A stretch of DNA of 64,000 nucleotides from the sequence record OZ413489.1; one strand, 5' to 3'. The notes below the pieces were generated by a model. The model was not told the origin of the DNA, searched no databases, and saw nothing but the letters and a program-made list of their open reading frames with translations. Shown here piece by piece: positions 42,680 through 59,081 of this stretch; position 1 is the first letter of the stretch, and every line of letters starts with the position of its first letter. The translations under genes and the position numbers were made by a program. This DNA is from a phage.

Positions 42680-45600
42680 ATGCTTCCAATCCCTTTGCTA
42701 AAACTTGGTCGTCATTTCCTCGATAAGAGGGGTGGAATTAAGGAACTTGCTGTTCTGTCATACCCAATAGACAACAGTGATGGTACAAGCAACACAGTAT
42801 CCTATGTAAATAGCTTAGCTATACTTTTTGATGATGGTCAGCTTAATATTACTGGCTATAATAGGTTCGGAGAGTGTCGGACTGGAGATCTTGATACAAT
42901 AAACTATCCTAATGAGGCAGCTTGGAACGTAGACCATGTTTGGAGAGCTGACCGTGCATTTGTAATCCGCACATTCGATAATAAATTTTTCTATATTGGT
43001 TGCACAGCTGGTCTTATCGGATCGGAGGCAGCAGGTGGAAACGATGTTTGTGTCAGAGAGTGGACACCTTTGCCGGAACAGATCGTAACAGGGTTGCATT
43101 TGGACACCCATCCTGAGAGACTTGTTGAAGTAATGGGTGGCGTAAACAATACAGTGTGGGTAATTGCTGCACCAGAGGCTGATGGTATGCTTCACCTGTA
43201 CGGCTCTGGCAATAATACTTACGGCTCTCTTCATGTTGACAAAAGTCAACACGCTACTCCAGTTAAGATCGGTGAAACATCTGAAAGTCCAGAGACAGGT
43301 CCTTGGAAAAATCCAAGAATTAATTGTGAAGTTCATGACAACTCGGTTATTTTTGGTGGTCCTAACGGATTCTGGATTGCAGGTTACGATTTCTTAAGAA
43401 ATAACAGCAAAAACACACTAGTTTATCCAGCCGAGCATGTGACTCTTGACCAGTTTAAAGGCATCCCGGTGGGCGAGACATGGAAAGGGTTCATGTGTGG
43501 ACCTAATGGTGCAATTATAGCCACAGAAAGGATGCACAAACCTGATGACCAACAGCTTGTTAACGTATTCTACGGGCAAGACGTCTGGGGAGATGACACA
43601 TGGCGTTCCTTAAATATCACCTACACCCATGAGGTGATAATGGCTCGTGGATACGGCACAAGTGGCATTTTCTTCAATAATGGCACTAAACAGTATCGTG
43701 GATTCTCTCGCAACTTGTGTAATGATATTGGTGCACAATCTGCAAACAATAGCCCTAGGGCTAATTTTATCCACTATCAGGCTCTTGCTACAGCTAAATA
43801 TGTTGAGCAACGCCTGCCAGTTAGCTGGACAGAGAGTGTTTATTTCCAAGGCATCCACAGGGAAGGTTTCTTAGGAACCTTTACTGTTGTTAATGGCAAA
43901 CTTTGGTGGTCAGGCATCCCAAGGGGGAGTTTTGCAGGATCTAACAACCTCTTTGGCGGCAGACTTAACAGCCAAGGGTTCACAGAGATTCCGGAGAATT
44001 GGTATAAAAATGTCCCGGTAGATAGCTGGGGTATCGAAGACATCTTTGATGTCAATGGTGTGAGCAATGTTAGCAACATTTACATCGGAGATACTGTCAA
44101 GATGAAATTGAAACCTCAGCCGGAGGGTGCTACGTTCATTATTGACAAGATTGAGTTGGTAAATGCTGCAGGCACTGTTGTTACAGATGCAAACTATCAG
44201 TTCTCCACTAACTGGAACCATGGTGGTGCTAACGAAGTTGTGGTCACCCAGTATAACCGTAACATCAACAGACGTGGTTTGTATTCTATCAAGATCACCT
44301 ACCATGACAAGCATGGCACTGGAAGAACCTGTACGACAAGGACTTTGAACTGGAACACTATAGTTCCTGCGTATCCGTCCAACGGCAAGTGGCATACCGT
44401 TGGTAGAAACAAGCAGTTCCATGTTAACGATACTGTATACTTTGGGCTGAATGGGACCCAGCCTGCAGTAGAAGGGGATACATCGTATATGGTCAGACTC
44501 CACAGAATGGATGCTGGATCAGTCACTTATGATGTGACCCAAGAGATCTACGATCAAAGACGCGCCACGTATGACAATATTGTGAAAACACAAGCCTTGT
44601 GGAAGTTCAATCCTAATGGCAAGGGTGGTAAAATGTTGCAGGTTAATGAGCAGAACGGAACGTCGTTGACTGTTCACGAACACCCAGACCCTTGGCCTGA
44701 TCCTGGAAAACCTCACCCGGGAGCTCGTACACTGAAAATTGTCAGCCATGATGCAGGGTATTTCGGAATACGCTGGGAAGCTACAGTAAGATATGTCGAC
44801 GGGACAACAAACAACATAGGGATTACACTTGGCGGCACTAGTGAAGATAACTCGCTGAAAATTGCCTACACGCCTAGAGGTATCTCTATTGATAATATGG
44901 ATGTTGTTCGCAATGGTTACGGCGATGTGAATGTCAAAGTTACTCTTGGCGAACATCTTGGTGGGGAAAGGATCATCATGTATGCCTTTGATCATGATCC
45001 ACGCACCAATGGAACTTATGCAAATCAGGCATGGAGTTACCTGATAAATGCACCTGAGCCGAATACTAAAGAGTTCTACTATGGTATGAAGCGAGATGTG
45101 TGCAAGAAAACAGGAACACATGACTGGATTGCTATCTGCGTTAAAGATGAGCGCACAGCTTGGGATGAGCCTGTTAACAGATGGTTCATAGGTATTCCTA
45201 CCAGAAGTGATAAGTATGTCGCAGAATATATTGTATGCATGGGCGGTACCAACCTAAACATGTGTTGGAACGAAGATGTAAACAAATACTCTGATTATGA
45301 CTATATGAGGGATTACTCTTGTAATTTGTGGTTTAACCAAACTACAGGTTACCCTCCGCGTCAGGCAAGGGTAAATCCTGCAATCTTTACAGATACGCAG
45401 GTTTTCTTGACAAAACAGGCCAACGAGGTTCAGACCTTCAAGAATAACTATGACCCTAACAAGTGGTTCTACAACTGTTACGGCGCATTTTTCTGGGGAC
45501 CTGGTGAGTTACCTGGTGGAGGATCTTGCTTGAATGAGGCAACTTACGCCAGTGACTACATCATGGGGCAGGTCAAGAAGTATAAGATAATCCCCGGTCC

Positions 45601-48316
45601 TGAGACTCTGGGCAATGCCGTTGACCCTTATATCATCATGACTGCACTGAGATCAAACATGGACGGGACATCCATGTCTATGCAAATTCCGGTAACAAAC
45701 GGGTACAAACGTGTTGTGATGATCATTAAGTGCGATCTGATCGGGAAGCAAGTTCTTGCAGAAAACGGGACATCCACACATCCTTTTGAGATCGCTCTGC
45801 ACTATCAGTTTGCTGACTCACCTTTTGCAGGGGATAAGAGAATATCTGATACAGACGCACAGCGTTGTAAGAAAGTATTGTTGGGTGCAGGTTGGTGGTG
45901 GTATGAGTTTGATTTAACAGACAAATTCACCGACACGTCTAAAGTTGTAACAGGACTTCGTCTAGACCTTGGCGAGAACATGCACAAAGCTGTTTGTGAT
46001 GGCACCTATGGTGACCCTACAATATACCTAAAATATGTTTCTTTTGAGCATCCGGAAGATGTTGTCTACGGTCCAAAACTGAGATTGTTTGGCAGCTGGA
46101 TTGCAAAAGATAGGGTAGGCATGGGTAAGAAGGTAAGAGGGCTCTTGGTTGATGCAGGAACAGAAGACATGCTGGTTAATGCAGTGTGGCCTGAATTACC
46201 TGGGACTCAGTGGGACAACTCAGCCAAATCTATAAACTGGTTTAACATTCATAGGGCCATGTGGACCACTAACTGCTACTTGTGGAGAGAGCTTAACGAT
46301 CAGGCCTTTGGATTCAGCGATGGTAGAAGGATGGCGATCATTTGCTGGACAACACTGCAAAGATGTTATGACCATGACTATGAGATTGGGGGCAGGGCAT
46401 GGAAAAATATCAGGGATAGAATCATAACCAATTTTGCAGACGACAACGGTGGTGGAGCACATAACTTTGGCACAAGCCGACTCATCCATTTGAACGGATC
46501 CTCAGCCTACAAGAAAGAAGGTTACTCTGGGTCTATGATCGAGTGGGGTCTGGTGAAAGATGCTCGCGTATTGATGGGCCAGCAACTTGCTGCCGCAATA
46601 GGTCCCAGCGCAGTGCAGTCGGTTAAACCAGCGTGGTTCGATATTCCATTGTGGTCACCCGGAACACCGGGAACTGCTGCAATCAACCCTACCACTGGGG
46701 ATCTAGAAATCTCCTGGGAGGACTTGAAGCAGGTCGGTGGTTGGGACAAAACAGGGTACCAGGTTCAGTGGTGGAGAGCTGATGGATCTTTAGCTGCTGA
46801 TGAGTTTGTTAAGGACAATTTCTACACTATGTCCTCTGCAAAAGCACAGCAATTATTTGGTCAGGCAACTCCGTCAACGATCACCATGTCTATGTGCTGT
46901 AAAGACAACAGGACTGGAGCTTTGGGGCCAAGGGTTGCTAAAGTTTTCTCAGGTATTAAATGGAATCTACCTGTCCAAAGTATTTCATGGAAGCAAATAG
47001 GTGATAACAAGCTGCTGGTTACCCCTGCCTGTCAGTTCAACGCAACTCTTAACGTTGATCCTGCTGTTGCGGCAAACTCAGCTAAAGCTTCTGACTTCTC
47101 TGTGTCTAACACTGCTATGGCAGATGTGAGGAAGATTGACACGCTGAACGCCAGAATTACCTGTAAAAACACTTATGGCACATTCCAGATCATCAACAAC
47201 TTCACAGATGCTGATTCTAAGGTAGTGAGGACAGCAAGCCAGACTTTGAGTTTAGGAACTCTGGCCTATGCGGCCCTGATCACTGAACAGTCGGCAACAC
47301 TCCAAGGAGGTGGTGTAGGCAAGTCCATTACAACACCTGTGTGGAAGCCAAATGAGTGGGTTGTGTTTGATTTGACTGTGGACTTCTCCAGCGATAATAA
47401 CTGGACATGGGTAAGGAATTGTTTGTCACAGTTGATGGGCGGTCCAAGCTCCGTTAGTGATAGTCACGACTCTACTGACCCGAGTGTGTTCCAGGTAGGT
47501 AAAACTCACCCAGAGACTGGAGAAACGTTGCCTGACAGGAAGTATGCTTTGGTTTGCATCTCTTACGGGAAGGCAGATGTCACCTTCTCAGGGACACACA
47601 CTTATAACGGAACCTACAACTTCTCAAGGAAGTATAGTCTCAAAGCAGGGAACATTATAGACGAGGTTGGTGTGCTGTATAATCCGGGCAACGGCATAGG
47701 GATTGTTGGTGGTAAACTGCAGATGCAGGAACCTTCTATTACCCCTTCCAACGTATCCGGGATTAGAAAGACTTGGGAAAGTAGTAATACCAACATTGCA
47801 ACAGTGGATGCCACCACAGGACTGGTAACATTTAAAGCTACTGGGAATGTCACCATAAAGTTTGTAGTTACAGATGATGCAGGGCGCAAAACGTCTTCAA
47901 CATCTTTTACTGTCAAACAGATGGCACCACAGTGGAGAATGTGGATAGGTACAGCAACAAACGGGGCATACCCTAATCCGGCAGGTACTTCTGGTATGAA
48001 GACTTTCTCTACAAGCAAACCGATGGAGTACGGCAGCGGTCCTAAGGTAGGGCAGATGGTGTACTTTGGTGCGTATATTCCTGAAATTATAGGGCTTCCG
48101 AGAAGTCAGCTTCAGTTGCTGTTTGGGGCTGGTGTTGACGATCTTGCCACTTTCGGGTATAGCGACAACATCGAGGCTGCAAGGAGTTCAGGATGGGTAG
48201 GGTTCAGAATGGAGTCTGGAAAGGAAGGCAGGATTCTAGGGACAGCCTCTATAGGTGTTATGTTCCCTGGTGACCAGCAGTATCGTCTAGAAGCCTACGC
48301 AACCTTTTCTCGTTAA
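42680..48316 (+). CDS. giant virion-associated protein with C-terminal Ig-like domain
   Basis: 1878 aa; GGAGA RBS; Big_2-like segment (TWESSNTNIATVDATTGLVTFKATGNVTIKFVVTDDAGRKTSSTSFTV); last gene of the plus-strand operon. Confidence 0.4.
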   Translation: MLPIPLLKLGRHFLDKRGGIKELAVLSYPIDNSDGTSNTVSYVNSLAILFDDGQLNITGYNRFGECRTGDLDTINYPNEAAWNVDHVWRADRAFVIRTFDNKFFYIGCTAGLIGSEAAGGNDVCVREWTPLPEQIVTGLHLDTHPERLVEVMGGVNNTVWVIAAPEADGMLHLYGSGNNTYGSLHVDKSQHATPVKIGETSESPETGPWKNPRINCEVHDNSVIFGGPNGFWIAGYDFLRNNSKNTLVYPAEHVTLDQFKGIPVGETWKGFMCGPNGAIIATERMHKPDDQQLVNVFYGQDVWGDDTWRSLNITYTHEVIMARGYGTSGIFFNNGTKQYRGFSRNLCNDIGAQSANNSPRANFIHYQALATAKYVEQRLPVSWTESVYFQGIHREGFLGTFTVVNGKLWWSGIPRGSFAGSNNLFGGRLNSQGFTEIPENWYKNVPVDSWGIEDIFDVNGVSNVSNIYIGDTVKMKLKPQPEGATFIIDKIELVNAAGTVVTDANYQFSTNWNHGGANEVVVTQYNRNINRRGLYSIKITYHDKHGTGRTCTTRTLNWNTIVPAYPSNGKWHTVGRNKQFHVNDTVYFGLNGTQPAVEGDTSYMVRLHRMDAGSVTYDVTQEIYDQRRATYDNIVKTQALWKFNPNGKGGKMLQVNEQNGTSLTVHEHPDPWPDPGKPHPGARTLKIVSHDAGYFGIRWEATVRYVDGTTNNIGITLGGTSEDNSLKIAYTPRGISIDNMDVVRNGYGDVNVKVTLGEHLGGERIIMYAFDHDPRTNGTYANQAWSYLINAPEPNTKEFYYGMKRDVCKKTGTHDWIAICVKDERTAWDEPVNRWFIGIPTRSDKYVAEYIVCMGGTNLNMCWNEDVNKYSDYDYMRDYSCNLWFNQTTGYPPRQARVNPAIFTDTQVFLTKQANEVQTFKNNYDPNKWFYNCYGAFFWGPGELPGGGSCLNEATYASDYIMGQVKKYKIIPGPETLGNAVDPYIIMTALRSNMDGTSMSMQIPVTNGYKRVVMIIKCDLIGKQVLAENGTSTHPFEIALHYQFADSPFAGDKRISDTDAQRCKKVLLGAGWWWYEFDLTDKFTDTSKVVTGLRLDLGENMHKAVCDGTYGDPTIYLKYVSFEHPEDVVYGPKLRLFGSWIAKDRVGMGKKVRGLLVDAGTEDMLVNAVWPELPGTQWDNSAKSINWFNIHRAMWTTNCYLWRELNDQAFGFSDGRRMAIICWTTLQRCYDHDYEIGGRAWKNIRDRIITNFADDNGGGAHNFGTSRLIHLNGSSAYKKEGYSGSMIEWGLVKDARVLMGQQLAAAIGPSAVQSVKPAWFDIPLWSPGTPGTAAINPTTGDLEISWEDLKQVGGWDKTGYQVQWWRADGSLAADEFVKDNFYTMSSAKAQQLFGQATPSTITMSMCCKDNRTGALGPRVAKVFSGIKWNLPVQSISWKQIGDNKLLVTPACQFNATLNVDPAVAANSAKASDFSVSNTAMADVRKIDTLNARITCKNTYGTFQIINNFTDADSKVVRTASQTLSLGTLAYAALITEQSATLQGGGVGKSITTPVWKPNEWVVFDLTVDFSSDNNWTWVRNCLSQLMGGPSSVSDSHDSTDPSVFQVGKTHPETGETLPDRKYALVCISYGKADVTFSGTHTYNGTYNFSRKYSLKAGNIIDEVGVLYNPGNGIGIVGGKLQMQEPSITPSNVSGIRKTWESSNTNIATVDATTGLVTFKATGNVTIKFVVTDDAGRKTSSTSFTVKQMAPQWRMWIGTATNGAYPNPAGTSGMKTFSTSKPMEYGSGPKVGQMVYFGAYIPEIIGLPRSQLQLLFGAGVDDLATFGYSDNIEAARSSGWVGFRMESGKEGRILGTASIGVMFPGDQQYRLEAYATFSR

Positions 48317-52784: not shown

Positions 52785-54266
52785 TTACTTAGCGTACTCG
52801 ATTAATTCCACAGTTTTCCCAAAGCTCGGGATATAATTTTTATTATACCCTTCGGTGAGAACCCATAAAGTATCGTACTTTTTCCACTTGTTGTCAACAG
52901 CCTTTTGTTCAAAGTTATGCTCAAAGTATAGGTCGGTCAGGACGATGACATCTTTTGCATTTGGTATGTTGGCATCCAGATACTCGAACACGCAAGCAGC
53001 TGTTGTGCCCCATGTTGAGTGGACCTCATAGTTAATCATCTCATCGATGTTACCGCGAGTGTATACTTTAACCTCTCCAACCTCCGTTGACCAACAGAAC
53101 ATAGTAACCTTAAACTCTTTATACAAATTGCACAACCCGGTGATCTCATTGAACATTTTCTTTAAAGTTCTTTGTGAGATCGACCCAGAAACGTCTAAAG
53201 CCACTACAATATCTATAGTGTTTTCCGGATTACGACCAGGAACAATAACGTGTTGATTCTTGTTTATAGCTCCAACTTTTCGCATTGTGGTGGTCAAAGA
53301 CCCAGATCGGCGACCAGGTTTTCTGTAGGTTAACTCAGCCTTTCTTTTAGATAACATACGTTGCTTAATAATATCTATATAATTGATTACAGGCTTGCCT
53401 CTGTTTTTGACAAACTCGCGCACCGCCTCGGGGCAACGACCTCCTGAAGCTTGCATTGCTGCTTCCAACATGTCACCAGAGTCCTGCATGGCCTGATCTT
53501 TGTCAGATTGACTGATTACTGGTTGCGGCTGATCATACCCCATAGCCTTTCCAAGATCATCACTAGTGCCACCGTTCCCGCTCATGTGATCATCGGTTTG
53601 TCGTTTATCTCCTTGGGAGTTCTCACCTTTACCGTTCTTACTTTTACCGTTATTCTGATCTCTTTGCTTATCAAGAACTGCATAGACGTTCTCAGCAATC
53701 CATCCATGAAACCTCATGTCGCAGTAGCAATTAGCTAAGAAGCCAAAAGGCTTACCTTTTACGAACTCAGTGCTTTTCCCCTTCGGGAAGAAAACACAAG
53801 GAGGCTTACTAAAGTCAACCACAAGACCTGTGTTGATAACGTGATCACAAGCAATATTGAACAGTTCCGGCTCAAAGCTTTTACCACGGACCAGATGATC
53901 ACAGATAATATGCCCCACCTCATGTGACAGAAGAAAGGCCACCTCTTTCACAGATTTTGGGGAATAGAAAACCTCAGCCATCTCAAACTGCTTGTCAGTC
54001 AGAGATGCTTTAAGAATGGTTTTACGCTCATCCGCCAACCCCATAATGAACTCAGGGCTGTAGTAGATGCGTTTATGGTCGGTTGCCATGGTGGAGCACC
54101 ATGTGTGGTTTTCTACGAACTGCAACCCTGACAGTAGTGTGCCATAAAACGGCAGCTTTTCAAGGAGATACATACGTGCAGCCTGCAACATTCTCAGGGC
54201 ATCATCTTTCTGTGAGGCAATGATTTCTGAACTTCTGCTATCCATTAAAACTCCAGAAGGGGCCAT
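52785..54266 (-). CDS. VWA-domain protein with N-terminal HExxH metallopeptidase-like domain (DUF2201-like)
   Basis: 493 aa; LSHEVGHIICDH zinc-binding-like motif; Gly/Asp/Ser-rich linker; C-terminal VWA MIDAS motif IVVALDVSGS. Confidence 0.55.
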   Translation of the reverse strand: MAPSGVLMDSRSSEIIASQKDDALRMLQAARMYLLEKLPFYGTLLSGLQFVENHTWCSTMATDHKRIYYSPEFIMGLADERKTILKASLTDKQFEMAEVFYSPKSVKEVAFLLSHEVGHIICDHLVRGKSFEPELFNIACDHVINTGLVVDFSKPPCVFFPKGKSTEFVKGKPFGFLANCYCDMRFHGWIAENVYAVLDKQRDQNNGKSKNGKGENSQGDKRQTDDHMSGNGGTSDDLGKAMGYDQPQPVISQSDKDQAMQDSGDMLEAAMQASGGRCPEAVREFVKNRGKPVINYIDIIKQRMLSKRKAELTYRKPGRRSGSLTTTMRKVGAINKNQHVIVPGRNPENTIDIVVALDVSGSISQRTLKKMFNEITGLCNLYKEFKVTMFCWSTEVGEVKVYTRGNIDEMINYEVHSTWGTTAACVFEYLDANIPNAKDVIVLTDLYFEHNFEQKAVDNKWKKYDTLWVLTEGYNKNYIPSFGKTVELIEYAK

Positions 54267-54273
54267 TGGCCCC
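54259..54273. promoter_or_regulatory. palindrome GGGGCC-ATT-GGCCCC spanning start codon of 52785-54266 gene
   Basis: Perfect 6-bp inverted repeat; ATG (complement of 54264-54266) and G-rich RBS lie inside the stem. Confidence 0.35.
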
Positions 54274-54278
54274 TGTCA

Positions 54279-55319
54279 TTATTTAACGTGTTTGAAAATA
54301 CCTGCCAACTCGGTCATTGTCATGCGGGTGGTCTTCATAAGATCTGTCATAGCTTTCTCCATAATTGGAGATACTACCATAAAGTTTCCTTTAGTGAAAC
54401 CTTTATTCCAGTCGGTCACCAACAGTGGTTTAAGTCCAGCTCTGAGACGTTCACCAGTTAAAGCACAGCATTTGCGAATATACGAACTCTTAAATTGGCT
54501 GAACGACAGATCAACTTTCATACCTGCATCGTAGAACGTTTGACAATAGAAAGTGTAAGCCTTAGCAATCTCAACATCATCAGGCAGTGCAGGAACCTCT
54601 TCTGCAATCCCCTCTTCGACCTCCTGAGGCTCTTTTTCCTCTTCAGAGTTCTGTTCTTCAACTTCTTCTGTCACAGTCTCGTTCACGATGTCTGAAATGT
54701 GTTTGTTGGCTGCACGATCAGCCATGAAATTTTTAAAGTCCTGCATTGGTGACATATCTTCTTCCTCTTCGTCAAATAGTGCTAGTTTATCTTCTTCTGT
54801 CCCGTATTGCAAGATGAAATCTTCAAAAGTATAATAACCTTTCAATTTCTCCATACGCTCTTCGCTCAGGTGGAGCATCATCTGCTGGACAATTTTTCGA
54901 TCAGTTTTGTCTTTAATCAGGATTGCAGTCTTTTTATCTACCAGACAGTCTTTCAGAGCATTGCACCTCAACCCTACCACACAACAATTGTCAATTGCGT
55001 AAGGACCTTCATCATCTATACGCTCCAAAGATGGGTAGAAAGGATTCCCCAGCCCGTTTTCATCTGTGTGCATGTCAAAAGGTATAAGGGTATAGTCGCA
55101 TACTCCATCTCCTAAAAGTTTTTTACCAAATAGGAGGTATTCTTCCCATGACAGGTCGAACTCTATATCTCGTTTCCGTGCGTTATTCTGTTTGCGTCTA
55201 TATTTTTTGAGCAAGCGCTCTAACTCTTCTGGTGTATAATATTTTTCAAGATTCATGAGTCGTCTCTCGTGCTCTGTAAGTGAAGAAATCGTATCAATTG
55301 TCTCAACAGATGTCAACAT
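54279..55319 (-). CDS. acidic protein with tandem His-Me-finger (HNH-like) zinc-loop modules
   Basis: Track ORF to 55322 (TTG); ATG at 55319 preferred; SLERIDDEGPYAIDNCCVVGLRCNALK resembles the HNH zinc-binding loop, with a degenerate second copy; long Glu/Asp-rich linker. Confidence 0.35.
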   Translation of the reverse strand: MLTSVETIDTISSLTEHERRLMNLEKYYTPEELERLLKKYRRKQNNARKRDIEFDLSWEEYLLFGKKLLGDGVCDYTLIPFDMHTDENGLGNPFYPSLERIDDEGPYAIDNCCVVGLRCNALKDCLVDKKTAILIKDKTDRKIVQQMMLHLSEERMEKLKGYYTFEDFILQYGTEEDKLALFDEEEEDMSPMQDFKNFMADRAANKHISDIVNETVTEEVEEQNSEEEKEPQEVEEGIAEEVPALPDDVEIAKAYTFYCQTFYDAGMKVDLSFSQFKSSYIRKCCALTGERLRAGLKPLLVTDWNKGFTKGNFMVVSPIMEKAMTDLMKTTRMTMTELAGIFKHVK

Positions 55320-55329
55320 CAAAAACGTG

Positions 55330-55358
55330 TTGACTTTACTCTAACTCTACAATATAGT
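55330..55358 (+). promoter_or_regulatory. sigma70-like promoter, TTGACT-17-TATAGT
   Basis: -35 55330-55335, -10 55353-55358; in divergent intergenic region upstream of 55399. Confidence 0.5.
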
Positions 55359-55398
55359 GCACCCATTCGAAAGAAAACTAACATAGGAGCACTTACTT

Positions 55399-56298
55399 AT
55401 GGCAAATCTTAACAGTTTTAGTACGCGGTGGAAACAGGACATAACAACCAATCTTTCAGCTGGGGACATCCTTTCTGCAATTTACGAGGCTTTAGATGAT
55501 AAAGCTACTTCAAAAGCGGTTTGTACCAACCCGCTAATTCCTGTAGTGATGAAGGTTATTGAGCGTAGATTGGTATCTGGGTCTGATAAGTGGACATATT
55601 TAGATAATGAAGGACACACCTATTCCAATGGGTACGTCGATATAAAAGTAGAATACGCGGTATCATACCGCCGGAGCGGTTCTGTAACTTTCAACTTCTC
55701 TGGAGGTTTTCGATCTCTGGCTACCTCACCTTTTGTTTCCTCAGAGGAGAAGTATGAGCTGCCATTTCTTTGGATGATGGCTAACGCGACAGGAAAAACC
55801 CCCGTTAGCATCCGAGTAAAATACAACTACAACGGATCTAGTAAGATCTATGCCGAAAGTGTCTCAGCAAGTTTTTATTTTGTGATGGGGGATGGAATCC
55901 TCAAACATATAAAGATGTGCGATATGCATGATGTTATAAATGAAGTGACTGATAAGAATGTTCTAGTGAAAGACCTCAACAATTTTTATACACCCGGAGA
56001 CTATTACGTCAGCCGTCCACTGTGCATCTTTAATGCCGCACACCCTCTAGGTGAGTATTTGATCGCCAATAGCGATATTGCCAATAACCGCTTCGAGGTA
56101 GCAAGAGTTCAGAATGAGGTATTGACATCTTGCAAGAGCGGTGATAAGTTTACCGAAGAAGAGATGGGTGTTTTAGAAATGATGGGATATAAGTGTAGCC
56201 TTTGGGTAGATGAGGTGTTTAATGATTGCATCTATGGACAGGATATTTACCCATTAAAGAAGTATACTGATACAAGTTTAATTTATGCAAGGGTTTGA
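55399..56298 (+). CDS. hypothetical protein
   Basis: 299 aa; first gene of plus-strand early operon. Confidence 0.4.
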   Translation: MANLNSFSTRWKQDITTNLSAGDILSAIYEALDDKATSKAVCTNPLIPVVMKVIERRLVSGSDKWTYLDNEGHTYSNGYVDIKVEYAVSYRRSGSVTFNFSGGFRSLATSPFVSSEEKYELPFLWMMANATGKTPVSIRVKYNYNGSSKIYAESVSASFYFVMGDGILKHIKMCDMHDVINEVTDKNVLVKDLNNFYTPGDYYVSRPLCIFNAAHPLGEYLIANSDIANNRFEVARVQNEVLTSCKSGDKFTEEEMGVLEMMGYKCSLWVDEVFNDCIYGQDIYPLKKYTDTSLIYARV

Positions 56299-57627: not shown

Positions 57628-57897
57628 ATGTTATACCAGCAATATGAACTTCGTGCAGAAAAAGAGTTAAATTTTGACAAAGATATTCACAGATATTATT
57701 ATGGGAAAGTTAGAGGGCAAGCAAGAAAGTGTACTCCAACACTCTTTTATGCCAGCAGACGACTAGCGCCAGAAGAGGCAACAGCAGAAAGGGTTGCGTA
57801 CAACTGGAGAGTCACGTATGATATTGACAGATCCGATGTGATATCTGTTTTGGAAAACTTTGAAAACACTTACACACAAGTAGAGGACTTTTACTAA
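57628..57897 (+). CDS. hypothetical protein
   Basis: 89 aa; AAGGAG RBS. Confidence 0.35.
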   Translation: MLYQQYELRAEKELNFDKDIHRYYYGKVRGQARKCTPTLFYASRRLAPEEATAERVAYNWRVTYDIDRSDVISVLENFENTYTQVEDFY

Positions 57898-59081
57898 TGT
57901 CAAGAAACGTATTCGAAAGTGGTCAAATCACTGTCCGTGAGTTGCCAGCTATTATTCAGTTTGCCCAACGTCATAGCCGATCTGTCCTAATTTTGGGACC
58001 AATGGGTGTGGGTAAAAGTCAGGTGATGAAGCAGATCGCTGATAATATGTTCGGTGAGCGAGATGACAACCTTGTTGACGTGCGACTGTCAGATAAAGAT
58101 CCTGCCGACTTATCTGGGCTACCTATCCCTGTAGAGGCGGATGGAACTACACGTACAGTGTTTGCAATTCCAGAATTTTGGCCTGCGGATCCTGACTGGA
58201 GCGGAATTATCTTTCTGGATGAGCTCACTCATGCAGATAACTACCTGCAAAAGGTTGCAATGCAAATTATGCTTGACCACAAGTGCGGTACCTATGCATT
58301 CCCTAAGGGTTCTGTTTTTGTGGCTGCTGGTAACCGTTCTACAGATGGTGCGGTTCTTTCGGCGCTCGAAGCCCCTCTGGCTAACCGTTTTATCATTGTA
58401 GAGGTTACAAGCAATGCAGAGGTGTTTATTGAGGACTACGCATTCCTTAATGGGGTGCACTCCTCTGTAATTGGATATCTGAAAAGAGTTCCATCAGCTA
58501 TCGATAATTATGAGGCCATGGCTGAGATTAATTGTCCATCTTTTGCCACACCGCGATCTTGGGTTGCTGCATCTGATATCTTGCACGATTTTGACAGCGG
58601 TATTATTTCTGACGCTATGGCCCGTGTTCTTCTGCAAGGTGCTATTGGTCACACTGCAGCGGTAGAGATCTGGACATACCACACCAAGAAACGCAATTTA
58701 CCTGAAATCGGTCGGATTATGGCAGGTGGTTGCAAAGAATACGTAGGTCCTAAGCAGCCAGACATTTTGTGGATTCTTGGATCTGAAGGTTGTATCGCTA
58801 TTCGTAATATGATGGAAAATGCAAGTATCTCAGACGAAGATCTTGTCAGCTGCGTGGCAAACTTCCTCGATTTCCTTTGGGAAAACTTCAAGGACGAGAA
58901 CCGAGATTTTGTATTCTCAGTCTTTATGGCGATGATGAAACCTAATGCCTTAGGAAATGCCTTGCTTATCGGCAAAGGGCGTGACAAGATTGTTGCTCAG
59001 CTGATCAAAGCATACCCAAACCTGATGAAGATTGTAAAAGAGTTTGGTGAAGAGTTTAGCGCCATTTTGGCTAAAGCTTAA
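57897..59081 (+). CDS. AAA+ ATPase (MoxR/CobS-like, AAA_5 type)
   Basis: 394 aa; Walker A GPMGVGKS, Walker B IIFLDE, sensor-like AAGN. Confidence 0.6.
   Translation: MSRNVFESGQITVRELPAIIQFAQRHSRSVLILGPMGVGKSQVMKQIADNMFGERDDNLVDVRLSDKDPADLSGLPIPVEADGTTRTVFAIPEFWPADPDWSGIIFLDELTHADNYLQKVAMQIMLDHKCGTYAFPKGSVFVAAGNRSTDGAVLSALEAPLANRFIIVEVTSNAEVFIEDYAFLNGVHSSVIGYLKRVPSAIDNYEAMAEINCPSFATPRSWVAASDILHDFDSGIISDAMARVLLQGAIGHTAAVEIWTYHTKKRNLPEIGRIMAGGCKEYVGPKQPDILWILGSEGCIAIRNMMENASISDEDLVSCVANFLDFLWENFKDENRDFVFSVFMAMMKPNALGNALLIGKGRDKIVAQLIKAYPNLMKIVKEFGEEFSAILAKA

Follow-up and report, generated by a model that had tools for sequence, protein, structure and literature searches.

The Srd protein of bacteriophage T4 associates with the N-terminal catalytic half of the host RNase E and stimulates the enzyme, speeding host mRNA decay, as stated in the passages that cite Qi et al. 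2015 in three papers (PMC7430671, PMC13232886, PMC9409239). The T4 record itself describes Srd as a 'postulated decoy' of sigma factors. For the vequintaviruses, the rV5 genome paper of 2013 stated that gp11 'is probably a Srd homolog' and predicted bidirectional promoters in the interval separating genes 10 and 11, heading the units 10-1-238-164 and 11-26 (PMC3606486). The restriction endonuclease PacI (PDB 3ldy and 3m7k), which Jablonska et al. 2017 placed in their group 20, is a second described system; it acts as a homodimer (PMC4081073, PMC3384342) and belongs to a group of His-Me finger proteins described as 'predominantly viral' (PMC5714182). PacI works without the usual general-base His; a Tyr of the omega loop is used instead and the metal is held by an Asp and an Asn (PMC5714182, PMC4081073, PMC3384342). 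Here we analyzed a minus-strand gene for an Srd-like protein in 64 000 nucleotides (nt) of phage DNA from sequence record OZ413489.1, the whole of which we call the window. We found that the N-terminal module of this protein has an intact PacI-type signature and that it is followed by an acidic linker and a degenerate second copy of the module. The gene, its link to Srd and the divergent control region are already published for rV5, since all three are contained in the rV5 genome paper. What we add is modest: we assign the protein to the PacI-type (Tyr) branch and find its signature intact, we show that it is internally duplicated and that the second copy is dead, and we correct the start codon and promoter. 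In the literature searched, no relevant link was found between Srd and HNH or PacI, nor between anti-sigma factors and vequintaviruses.

An Srd-like gene of the vequintaviruses

The region of the window that contains the gene comes from an rV5-like coliphage (Vequintavirus): 2.3 kilobases (kb) around the gene are 99.8% identical to Escherichia phage JeffSchatz. In 118 vequintavirus records the same 2.3-kb region is kept across 80% or more of its extent, with the Srd-like gene at the same locus, and the gene was also found in genera related to Vequintavirus. Its orthologues are gp11 in rV5 and bas55_0055 ('anti-sigma factor') in JeffSchatz, and it opens the leftward early operon in a promoter-proximal position. 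Other GenBank labels for the same gene are 'anti-termination', 'HNH endonuclease' and 'hypothetical protein', and one protein cluster is named 'type II restriction endonuclease'. Scans of the protein with Pfam, NCBIfam and PADLOC returned nothing significant; the same was true when ten distant relatives that differ in architecture were scanned with Pfam, and none of the cluster names of these ten was informative. In PHROGs we observed matches to phrog_3118 ('HNH endonuclease', E 2e-109), phrog_4592 ('decoy of host sigma70', E 2e-14), phrog_3322 ('endonuclease', E 6e-14), phrog_1035 ('endonuclease VII', E 1e-10) and phrog_1400 ('Srd anti-sigma factor', E 6.5e-9), the family of T4 Srd. In an exhaustive profile search, 3487 cluster representatives passed E ≤0.001 and 181 passed E ≤1e-10, mostly proteins of 230–330 amino acids (aa) with the same two-part layout.

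T4 Srd aligned with residues 8–143 of the protein by BLASTP (E 1e-6; residue numbering throughout refers to the 325-aa form). Residues 4–158 of T4 Srd match positions 7–169 of phrog_3118 (E 1.5e-16), and a hidden Markov model (HMM) of 196 N-type domains matched the N-terminus of T4 Srd with E 6e-28 in a single comparison. By these comparisons the N-terminal part of T4 Srd is securely homologous to the protein. The homologous domains share the signature C-x-Y-[ST]..F..SLER[IF]D-x4-Y-x3-N-x8-N-x2-[KR], the helical region that follows the domain is common to both proteins, and each is encoded by an early gene, in promoter-proximal position, of a large virulent myovirus. The C-terminal part of T4 Srd is not detectably a domain copy. 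We had considered the T4 Srd C-terminus (LSFIDKLKLKRGYPLNCSIF) as a truncated second module on a by-eye likeness, but its score with the broad N-domain HMM was −0.3 and the idea was dropped.

The N-terminal module is related to PacI

We built two AlphaFold models, with 16 (model 1) and 120 (model 2) aligned sequences. Both models have two confident domains separated by a low-confidence segment; the mean predicted local distance difference test score (pLDDT) is 77 in model 1 and 89 in model 2, in which both domains are mostly above 95. The N-module consists of a helical lead-in and a beta-beta-alpha core, a beta-hairpin followed by an alpha-helix. By Foldseek, nearly all PDB matches of the structure were HNH domains, each of them weak (E ≥0.025), with a probability of 0.99 for PacI. 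Among the predicted viral structures in BFVD the best neighbours were phage 'anti-sigma factor' proteins and HNH or uncharacterised proteins of giant viruses, which agrees with the predominantly viral character of the PacI group (PMC5714182). PacI was also the best PDB sequence match of the 120-sequence family profile (hmmsearch E 0.0033, PacI residues 30–124), and the profile of the 196 N-type domains aligned with the PacI segment at 93.6% probability (hhalign, E 2e-7). In the reverse direction the PacI segment matched phrog_1035 (8e-7), phrog_3322 and phrog_3118 (8e-4). Single-protein phmmer and the shallow 16-sequence profile gave only chance matches against the PDB sequences, and the Pfam models HNH and Endonuclease_7 matched neither the protein nor the ten distant relatives. 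The initial annotation had described this module as an HNH-like zinc loop and had named a profile search for His-Me finger similarity as the test that could refute it; the hmmsearch and hhalign results bear the similarity out.

The alignments pair E78 of the protein with D92 of PacI, R79 with R93, Y86 with Y100, N90 with N104, N99 with N113 and K102 with K116. We counted these positions in the 196 N-type domains, which were drawn from representatives clustered at 50% identity. Y86 and N90 were found in all 196, E/D78 in 195, R79 in 193, N99 in 191 (with His in 4) and K102 in 176, while C53, outside the signature, was found in 194. The complete six-residue signature [ED]RYNNK is present in 172 of the 196 domains, and T4 Srd reads E-R-Y-N-N-R. 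The family shares with the canonical HNH or beta-beta-alpha-Me nucleases (T4 endonuclease VII, I-HmuI, Gme HNH, McrA and the HNH domain of Cas9) the core and the spacings of Asp/Glu, structural Asn and helix Asn; the putative acidic metal ligand (E/D78), the structural Asn (N90) and the helix Asn/His (N99) are all in place. In contrast to these nucleases, the family has a near-invariant Arg (193/196) instead of the general-base His where the first strand ends; this residue, R79, aligns to PacI R93. As in PacI, a Tyr of the omega loop stands in place of the catalytic His, and Y86 aligns to PacI Y100. By deduction Y100 would be the His-replacing residue of PacI, because it is the only Tyr between the two core strands of that enzyme.

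Besides the omega-loop Tyr, the family thus shares with PacI a profile homology that can be detected, but it differs in its lack of zinc sites. PacI has two structural Cys4 zinc sites and the family has none: only C53 is conserved family-wide, the position of PacI C66 is Thr or Ser, and the positions of C109 and C112 are not conserved as Cys, so that CxxC...CxxC has become C-x-Y-[TS] followed by non-Cys residues. Of the earlier description of the module, the likeness to His-Me fingers therefore stands and the zinc loop does not, since the zinc ligands, like a conserved His set, are absent and C53 alone is kept. As judged from sequence, the N-module is a zinc-less and His-less beta-beta-alpha-Me domain of the PacI type in which the positions equivalent to the catalytic ones are strongly constrained.

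An acidic linker and a degenerate second module

The helical extension behind the N-module leads into a linker of about 60–80 residues, which had been noted before as long and rich in Glu and Asp, and our analysis agrees with this. Residues 144–224 contain 28 D+E (35%) and 5 K+R, a net charge of −23. The linker is predicted to be disordered, with pLDDT values of 31–71 in model 1 (below 50 for approximately residues 165–222) and block means of 44–69 in model 2. Its acidity is kept in relatives, whereas neither its length (37 to 94 residues) nor its sequence is conserved.

The C-terminal module had been proposed to be a degenerate copy of the first, and the deep profiles of the two modules substantiate this: they align in register over 84 columns (hhalign probability 97.9%, E 3.5e-13). 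This comparison superseded a direct BLASTP of the two halves, which was not significant (E 0.94), and a shallow profile–profile comparison, which was marginal (E 0.049). Both halves also align to the same stretch of T4 Srd (for the C-module, BLASTP 8e-4 and C profile 4.5e-5), and in the AlphaFold models both have the same order of elements, namely a long and then a short helix, a loop that contains a Cys, and two strands followed by a helix. The pLDDT of the C-module is about 95–98 over most of its length and 88 in the last five residues. However, its signature positions read L279, V280, F287, N291, E300 and M303. Only the structural Asn (N291) and the Cys (C264) are retained, and family-wide only Y234, C264 and N291 are near-invariant in this module. 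By these profiles the C-module is a real copy of the N-module, predicted to be catalytically dead, although it is well conserved and basic (isoelectric point 9.2). Inactive His-Me fingers that retain DNA binding are known, for example Smad MH1 (PMC5714182). The C-module resembles Smad MH1 and the Enpp nuclease-like domain in keeping the fold after loss of the general base and the metal ligands (PMC5714182), but here the dead domain lies in one chain with an apparently intact copy.

PacI is a 142-aa homodimer that cuts TTAATTAA, whereas the Srd-like protein is a single chain with one intact copy, one dead copy and an acidic linker between them. Eleven relatives have two N-type copies with D-R-Y-N-N kept in both, and single-domain relatives of 106–170 aa exist as well. 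As PacI is a homodimer and both single-domain and doubly intact relatives exist, we infer a series that would lead from a single-domain homodimer to a fused tandem, first with both sites live and then, in the form found in this clade, with one of them dead.

Function of the Srd-like protein

By analogy with T4 Srd, the protein could be an early host-takeover factor that docks on RNase E and speeds host mRNA turnover; this is the explanation we favour, and we give it about an even chance. Early transcription would be by host sigma-70 RNA polymerase, from an extended −10 promoter that is near consensus and stands back to back with that of the rightward early operon. The protein would then dock onto the catalytic half of host RNase E, and host mRNA turnover would speed up. 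The working surface would be the N-module's strictly conserved PacI-like pocket, binding nucleic-acid phosphate and a metal ion and possibly cleaving. The place of the second subunit in a PacI-like dimer would be taken by the dead C-module, giving a fused pseudo-dimer in which one site is live. The acidic linker would be a flexible tether and may also act as an intramolecular shield. The Srd-like protein itself may bind or cut nucleic acid. Several observations weigh against this explanation. The function, which was demonstrated for the T4 protein only, is carried over at about 24% identity (over 143 aa), and only the N-module and the helical region are shared. T4 Srd has 248 aa, a basic middle region and no acidic linker, and the two proteins are not collinear over their full length, as the C-terminal half of Srd matches neither the N nor the C profile. 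We know of no region of Srd described as the contact to RNase E, and in the literature searched we found no experiments on any vequintavirus orthologue. The packing of the two modules in the AlphaFold models is not confident (predicted template modelling score 0.50–0.57), which leaves the pseudo-dimer a hypothetical arrangement, and we infer the early timing from promoter type and position alone. Finally, a complete and near-invariant PacI catalytic set would seem to exceed the needs of a pure protein–protein adaptor.

This conserved set is also the main argument for an active PacI-type Tyr nuclease that would cut or nick host DNA or cleave RNA early, with a live N-module, the C-module as the other half of a fused dimer, and a role at RNase E that would be secondary or inapplicable. 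We regard such an enzyme as a real possibility, though short of probable. All six signature positions are near-invariant across 196 domains that share at most approximately 50% identity, relatives with two N-type copies retain the set in both, and PHROGs and RefSeq label the family 'HNH endonuclease'. Moreover, PacI is a working enzyme with exactly such a His-less set (PMC5714182, PMC4081073). However, both of its structural Cys4 zinc sites are missing here, and no nuclease activity is reported for Srd-family proteins in the literature searched. An unspecific DNase would then presumably endanger the phage's own genome, since we know of no modification of rV5-type DNA. In addition, the passage on T4 Srd in PMC7430671 attributes its effect on mRNA to the stimulation of host RNase E. 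A wider proposal, doubtful in our view, is that the whole Srd family including T4 Srd consists of zinc-less PacI-type Tyr-dependent nucleases with a live site, that the vequintavirus form is a pseudo-dimer gated by the acidic linker, and that the mRNA decay would partly be Srd's own catalysis or depend on its pocket. The initial annotation had suggested either a DNA-binding regulator derived from a nuclease or a DNA mimic. In present terms this would be an inert nucleic-acid-binding protein with two nuclease-derived modules, or a mimic whose linker traps a host DNA-binding protein, and we consider both unlikely. The regulator may fit the dead C-module, which is well conserved and basic despite the loss of its catalytic set, and Smad MH1 is a precedent for DNA binding by an inactive His-Me finger (PMC5714182). 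An N-module with the full PacI signature cannot be assumed to be inactive, however; the strong conservation of its active-site set is unexpected for a purely inert binder, and the Pfam scan found no helix-turn-helix or other regulator domain. For the mimic speaks the charge of the linker, which is net −23 with its acidity kept in relatives. The DNA mimics Ocr and ArdA are folded proteins, whereas here the acidic residues lie in a predicted disordered segment of variable length and sequence and not on a folded surface, which tells against mimicry.

The names under which the gene is deposited would suggest an anti-sigma factor, or a decoy of sigma-70 or sigma-S, that switches transcription from host or early to later genes. 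Many GenBank records say 'anti-sigma factor' or 'anti-termination', and the T4 record speaks of a postulated decoy. We nevertheless judge this reading improbable: no Pfam sigma-70 or anti-sigma family matched at E values up to 1, the fold is that of a nuclease and not of a sigma or anti-sigma factor, and the structural neighbours are nucleases. The label stems from an old postulate, and in the passages on Srd found in PMC7430671, PMC13232886 and PMC9409239 stimulation of RNase E is the only function attributed to it. The HNH-like fold would also suit a selfish mobile gene for a free-standing homing HNH endonuclease, and PacI-like HNH genes are presumed homing endonucleases in other phages (PMC12724721, a Skunavirus study). 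This reading is very unlikely indeed, as the gene keeps the same promoter-proximal locus in the early operon in all 118 matching vequintavirus records and in related genera, a distribution that is conserved and not sporadic, and the Pfam scan found no accessory DNA-binding domains.

Start codon, promoters and neighbouring genes

The gene had been read as a minus-strand open reading frame (ORF) of 346 aa, and it can indeed be read from an ATG at 55319 to 54279. However, this ATG is AGG or AGA in four of six vequintaviruses compared, while the ATG at 55256 and an upstream Shine–Dalgarno-like element, GAGAGA, are conserved across the six. Distant homologues (39–64% identity) start at the Met of MNLEKYY, and the start at 55256 is annotated in several GenBank records (JeffSchatz, Gotham, rV5_ev168). 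Furthermore, the 63 nt (21 codons) of the 'extension' contain a near-consensus extended −10 promoter on the minus strand, followed by the GAGAGA element. From the loss of the upstream ATG, the starts of the homologues, the GenBank starts and the promoter inside the extension, the protein most likely has 325 aa rather than 346. The coordinates of all features are collected in Table 1.

Table 1. Features of the Srd-like gene and its control region, in positions of the window
Feature	Position	Strand	Basis
Srd-like coding sequence, 325 aa and stop codon	54279..55256	-	ORF; JeffSchatz annotation; phrog_3118 (2e-109); homologue starts; conserved ATG and GAGAGA
N-module, residues 1–110: helical lead-in and beta-beta-alpha core, PacI-type His-Me finger by sequence	54927..55256	-	
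Signature motif SLERIDDEGPYAIDNCCVVGLRCNALK, residues 76–102	54951..55031	-	translation
Helical extension, residues 111–165, common to T4 Srd	54762..54926	-	helices 117–129, 132–138, 144–151 and 154–165; pLDDT mostly 92–97
Acidic linker, residues 166–224, predicted disordered	54585..54761	-	translation; pLDDT; charge
C-module, residues 225–325, degenerate copy of the N-module	54282..54584	-	
Promoter of the Srd-like gene, sigma-70 type, TTGACA-17-(TG)TACGAT	55316-55288	-	consensus scan (10/12 and TG); Gotham annotation; rV5 prediction
Divergent promoter TTGACT-17-TATAGT	55330..55358	+	consensus scan; Gotham annotation
G+C-rich hairpin	54258..54274	-	terminator-like scan; RNA fold −18 kcal/mol, z −2.3

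A scan of the region found 5 promoter-like sites where 3.5 ± 1.9 were expected, which is not above chance, so that support for the two promoters comes from their conservation and not from their count. In the six vequintaviruses the −35 hexamer of the Srd-like gene promoter is invariant and its −10 hexamer reads TA[C/A]GAT. The divergent plus-strand promoter reported in the initial annotation was recovered; its hexamers are conserved across the six vequintaviruses while the spacer varies, and it serves the rightward early operon, the first gene of which lies at 55399–56298. An inverted repeat at 55312–55334, GTCAACAT-N7-GTGTTGAC, had come up as terminator-like and was rejected, as it consists of the two −35 hexamers, which stand back to back with TTGAC on either strand and 13 bp between them. 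Such a symmetric −35 site could in principle allow one regulator to shut both early promoters.

At the other end of the gene, the G+C-rich hairpin lies 5 nt past the Srd-like stop codon and before the next gene, with 7 bp in the minus-strand RNA (AGGGGCC-AAU-GGCCCCU). The downstream gene has its first in-frame ATG (54266) within this hairpin; the start used in JeffSchatz is a later ATG (54245), which is preceded by a GGAG Shine–Dalgarno sequence close behind the hairpin. Intercistronic stabilisation, attenuation and translational coupling are possible roles of the hairpin. The downstream gene (52785–54266, minus strand) encodes a DUF2201_N putative metallopeptidase with a VWA-like domain (Pfam 4e-28 and 4e-11). 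In JeffSchatz, bas55_0055 is likewise followed by a 'putative metallopeptidase' and then by small hypothetical genes up to the tail-fibre gene. A MoxR-like AAA ATPase is encoded at 57897–59081 on the plus strand, on the other side of the divergent promoters, and the two genes look like a split MoxR–VWA pair. The metallopeptidase/VWA family, phrog_1314, is labelled 'HNH endonuclease' in PHROGs and 'putative anti-sigma factor' in one GenBank record; both labels look like annotation errors. The plus-strand neighbour of bas55_0055 is named 'putative 1-3 fucosyltransferase' in JeffSchatz, and its counterpart at 55399–56298 (+) is widely deposited as 'putative alpha 1-3 fucosyltransferase'. We observed no Pfam match for it at E values up to 1 and a PHROGs family of unknown function (phrog_12338), and the fucosyltransferase annotation seems unsupported.

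In the window as a whole, positions 1–48316 of the plus strand are the final part of the structural and tail-fibre module, in which a lateral tail fibre of 1878 aa is encoded at 42680–48316. Beyond the tail fibre lie two divergent early operons, at 48.3–55.3 kb on the minus strand and at 55.4–64 kb on the plus strand. We found no tRNA genes in the 64-kb window. Among the database records, 16 named 'Campylobacter phage' (host C. jejuni; e.g. MG065672 (L008), MG065647 and MG065654) are 90–99.6% identical to E. coli rV5-like phages at this locus, and the 'Campylobacter phage' A141 record is flagged UNVERIFIED. This suggests a wrong host label or contamination in these deposits.

Implications

The Srd-like gene is mislabelled across many deposited phage genomes, with five different names in use for the same protein. 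The series from single-domain relatives to the vequintavirus form would neatly illustrate how a homodimeric nuclease turns into a fused pseudo-dimer. If the whole Srd family should prove to have a live PacI-type site, phage 'anti-sigma factors' would be metal-dependent enzymes that cleave or nick nucleic acid. The PacI-type signature may bear on how large virulent phages shut down host mRNA.

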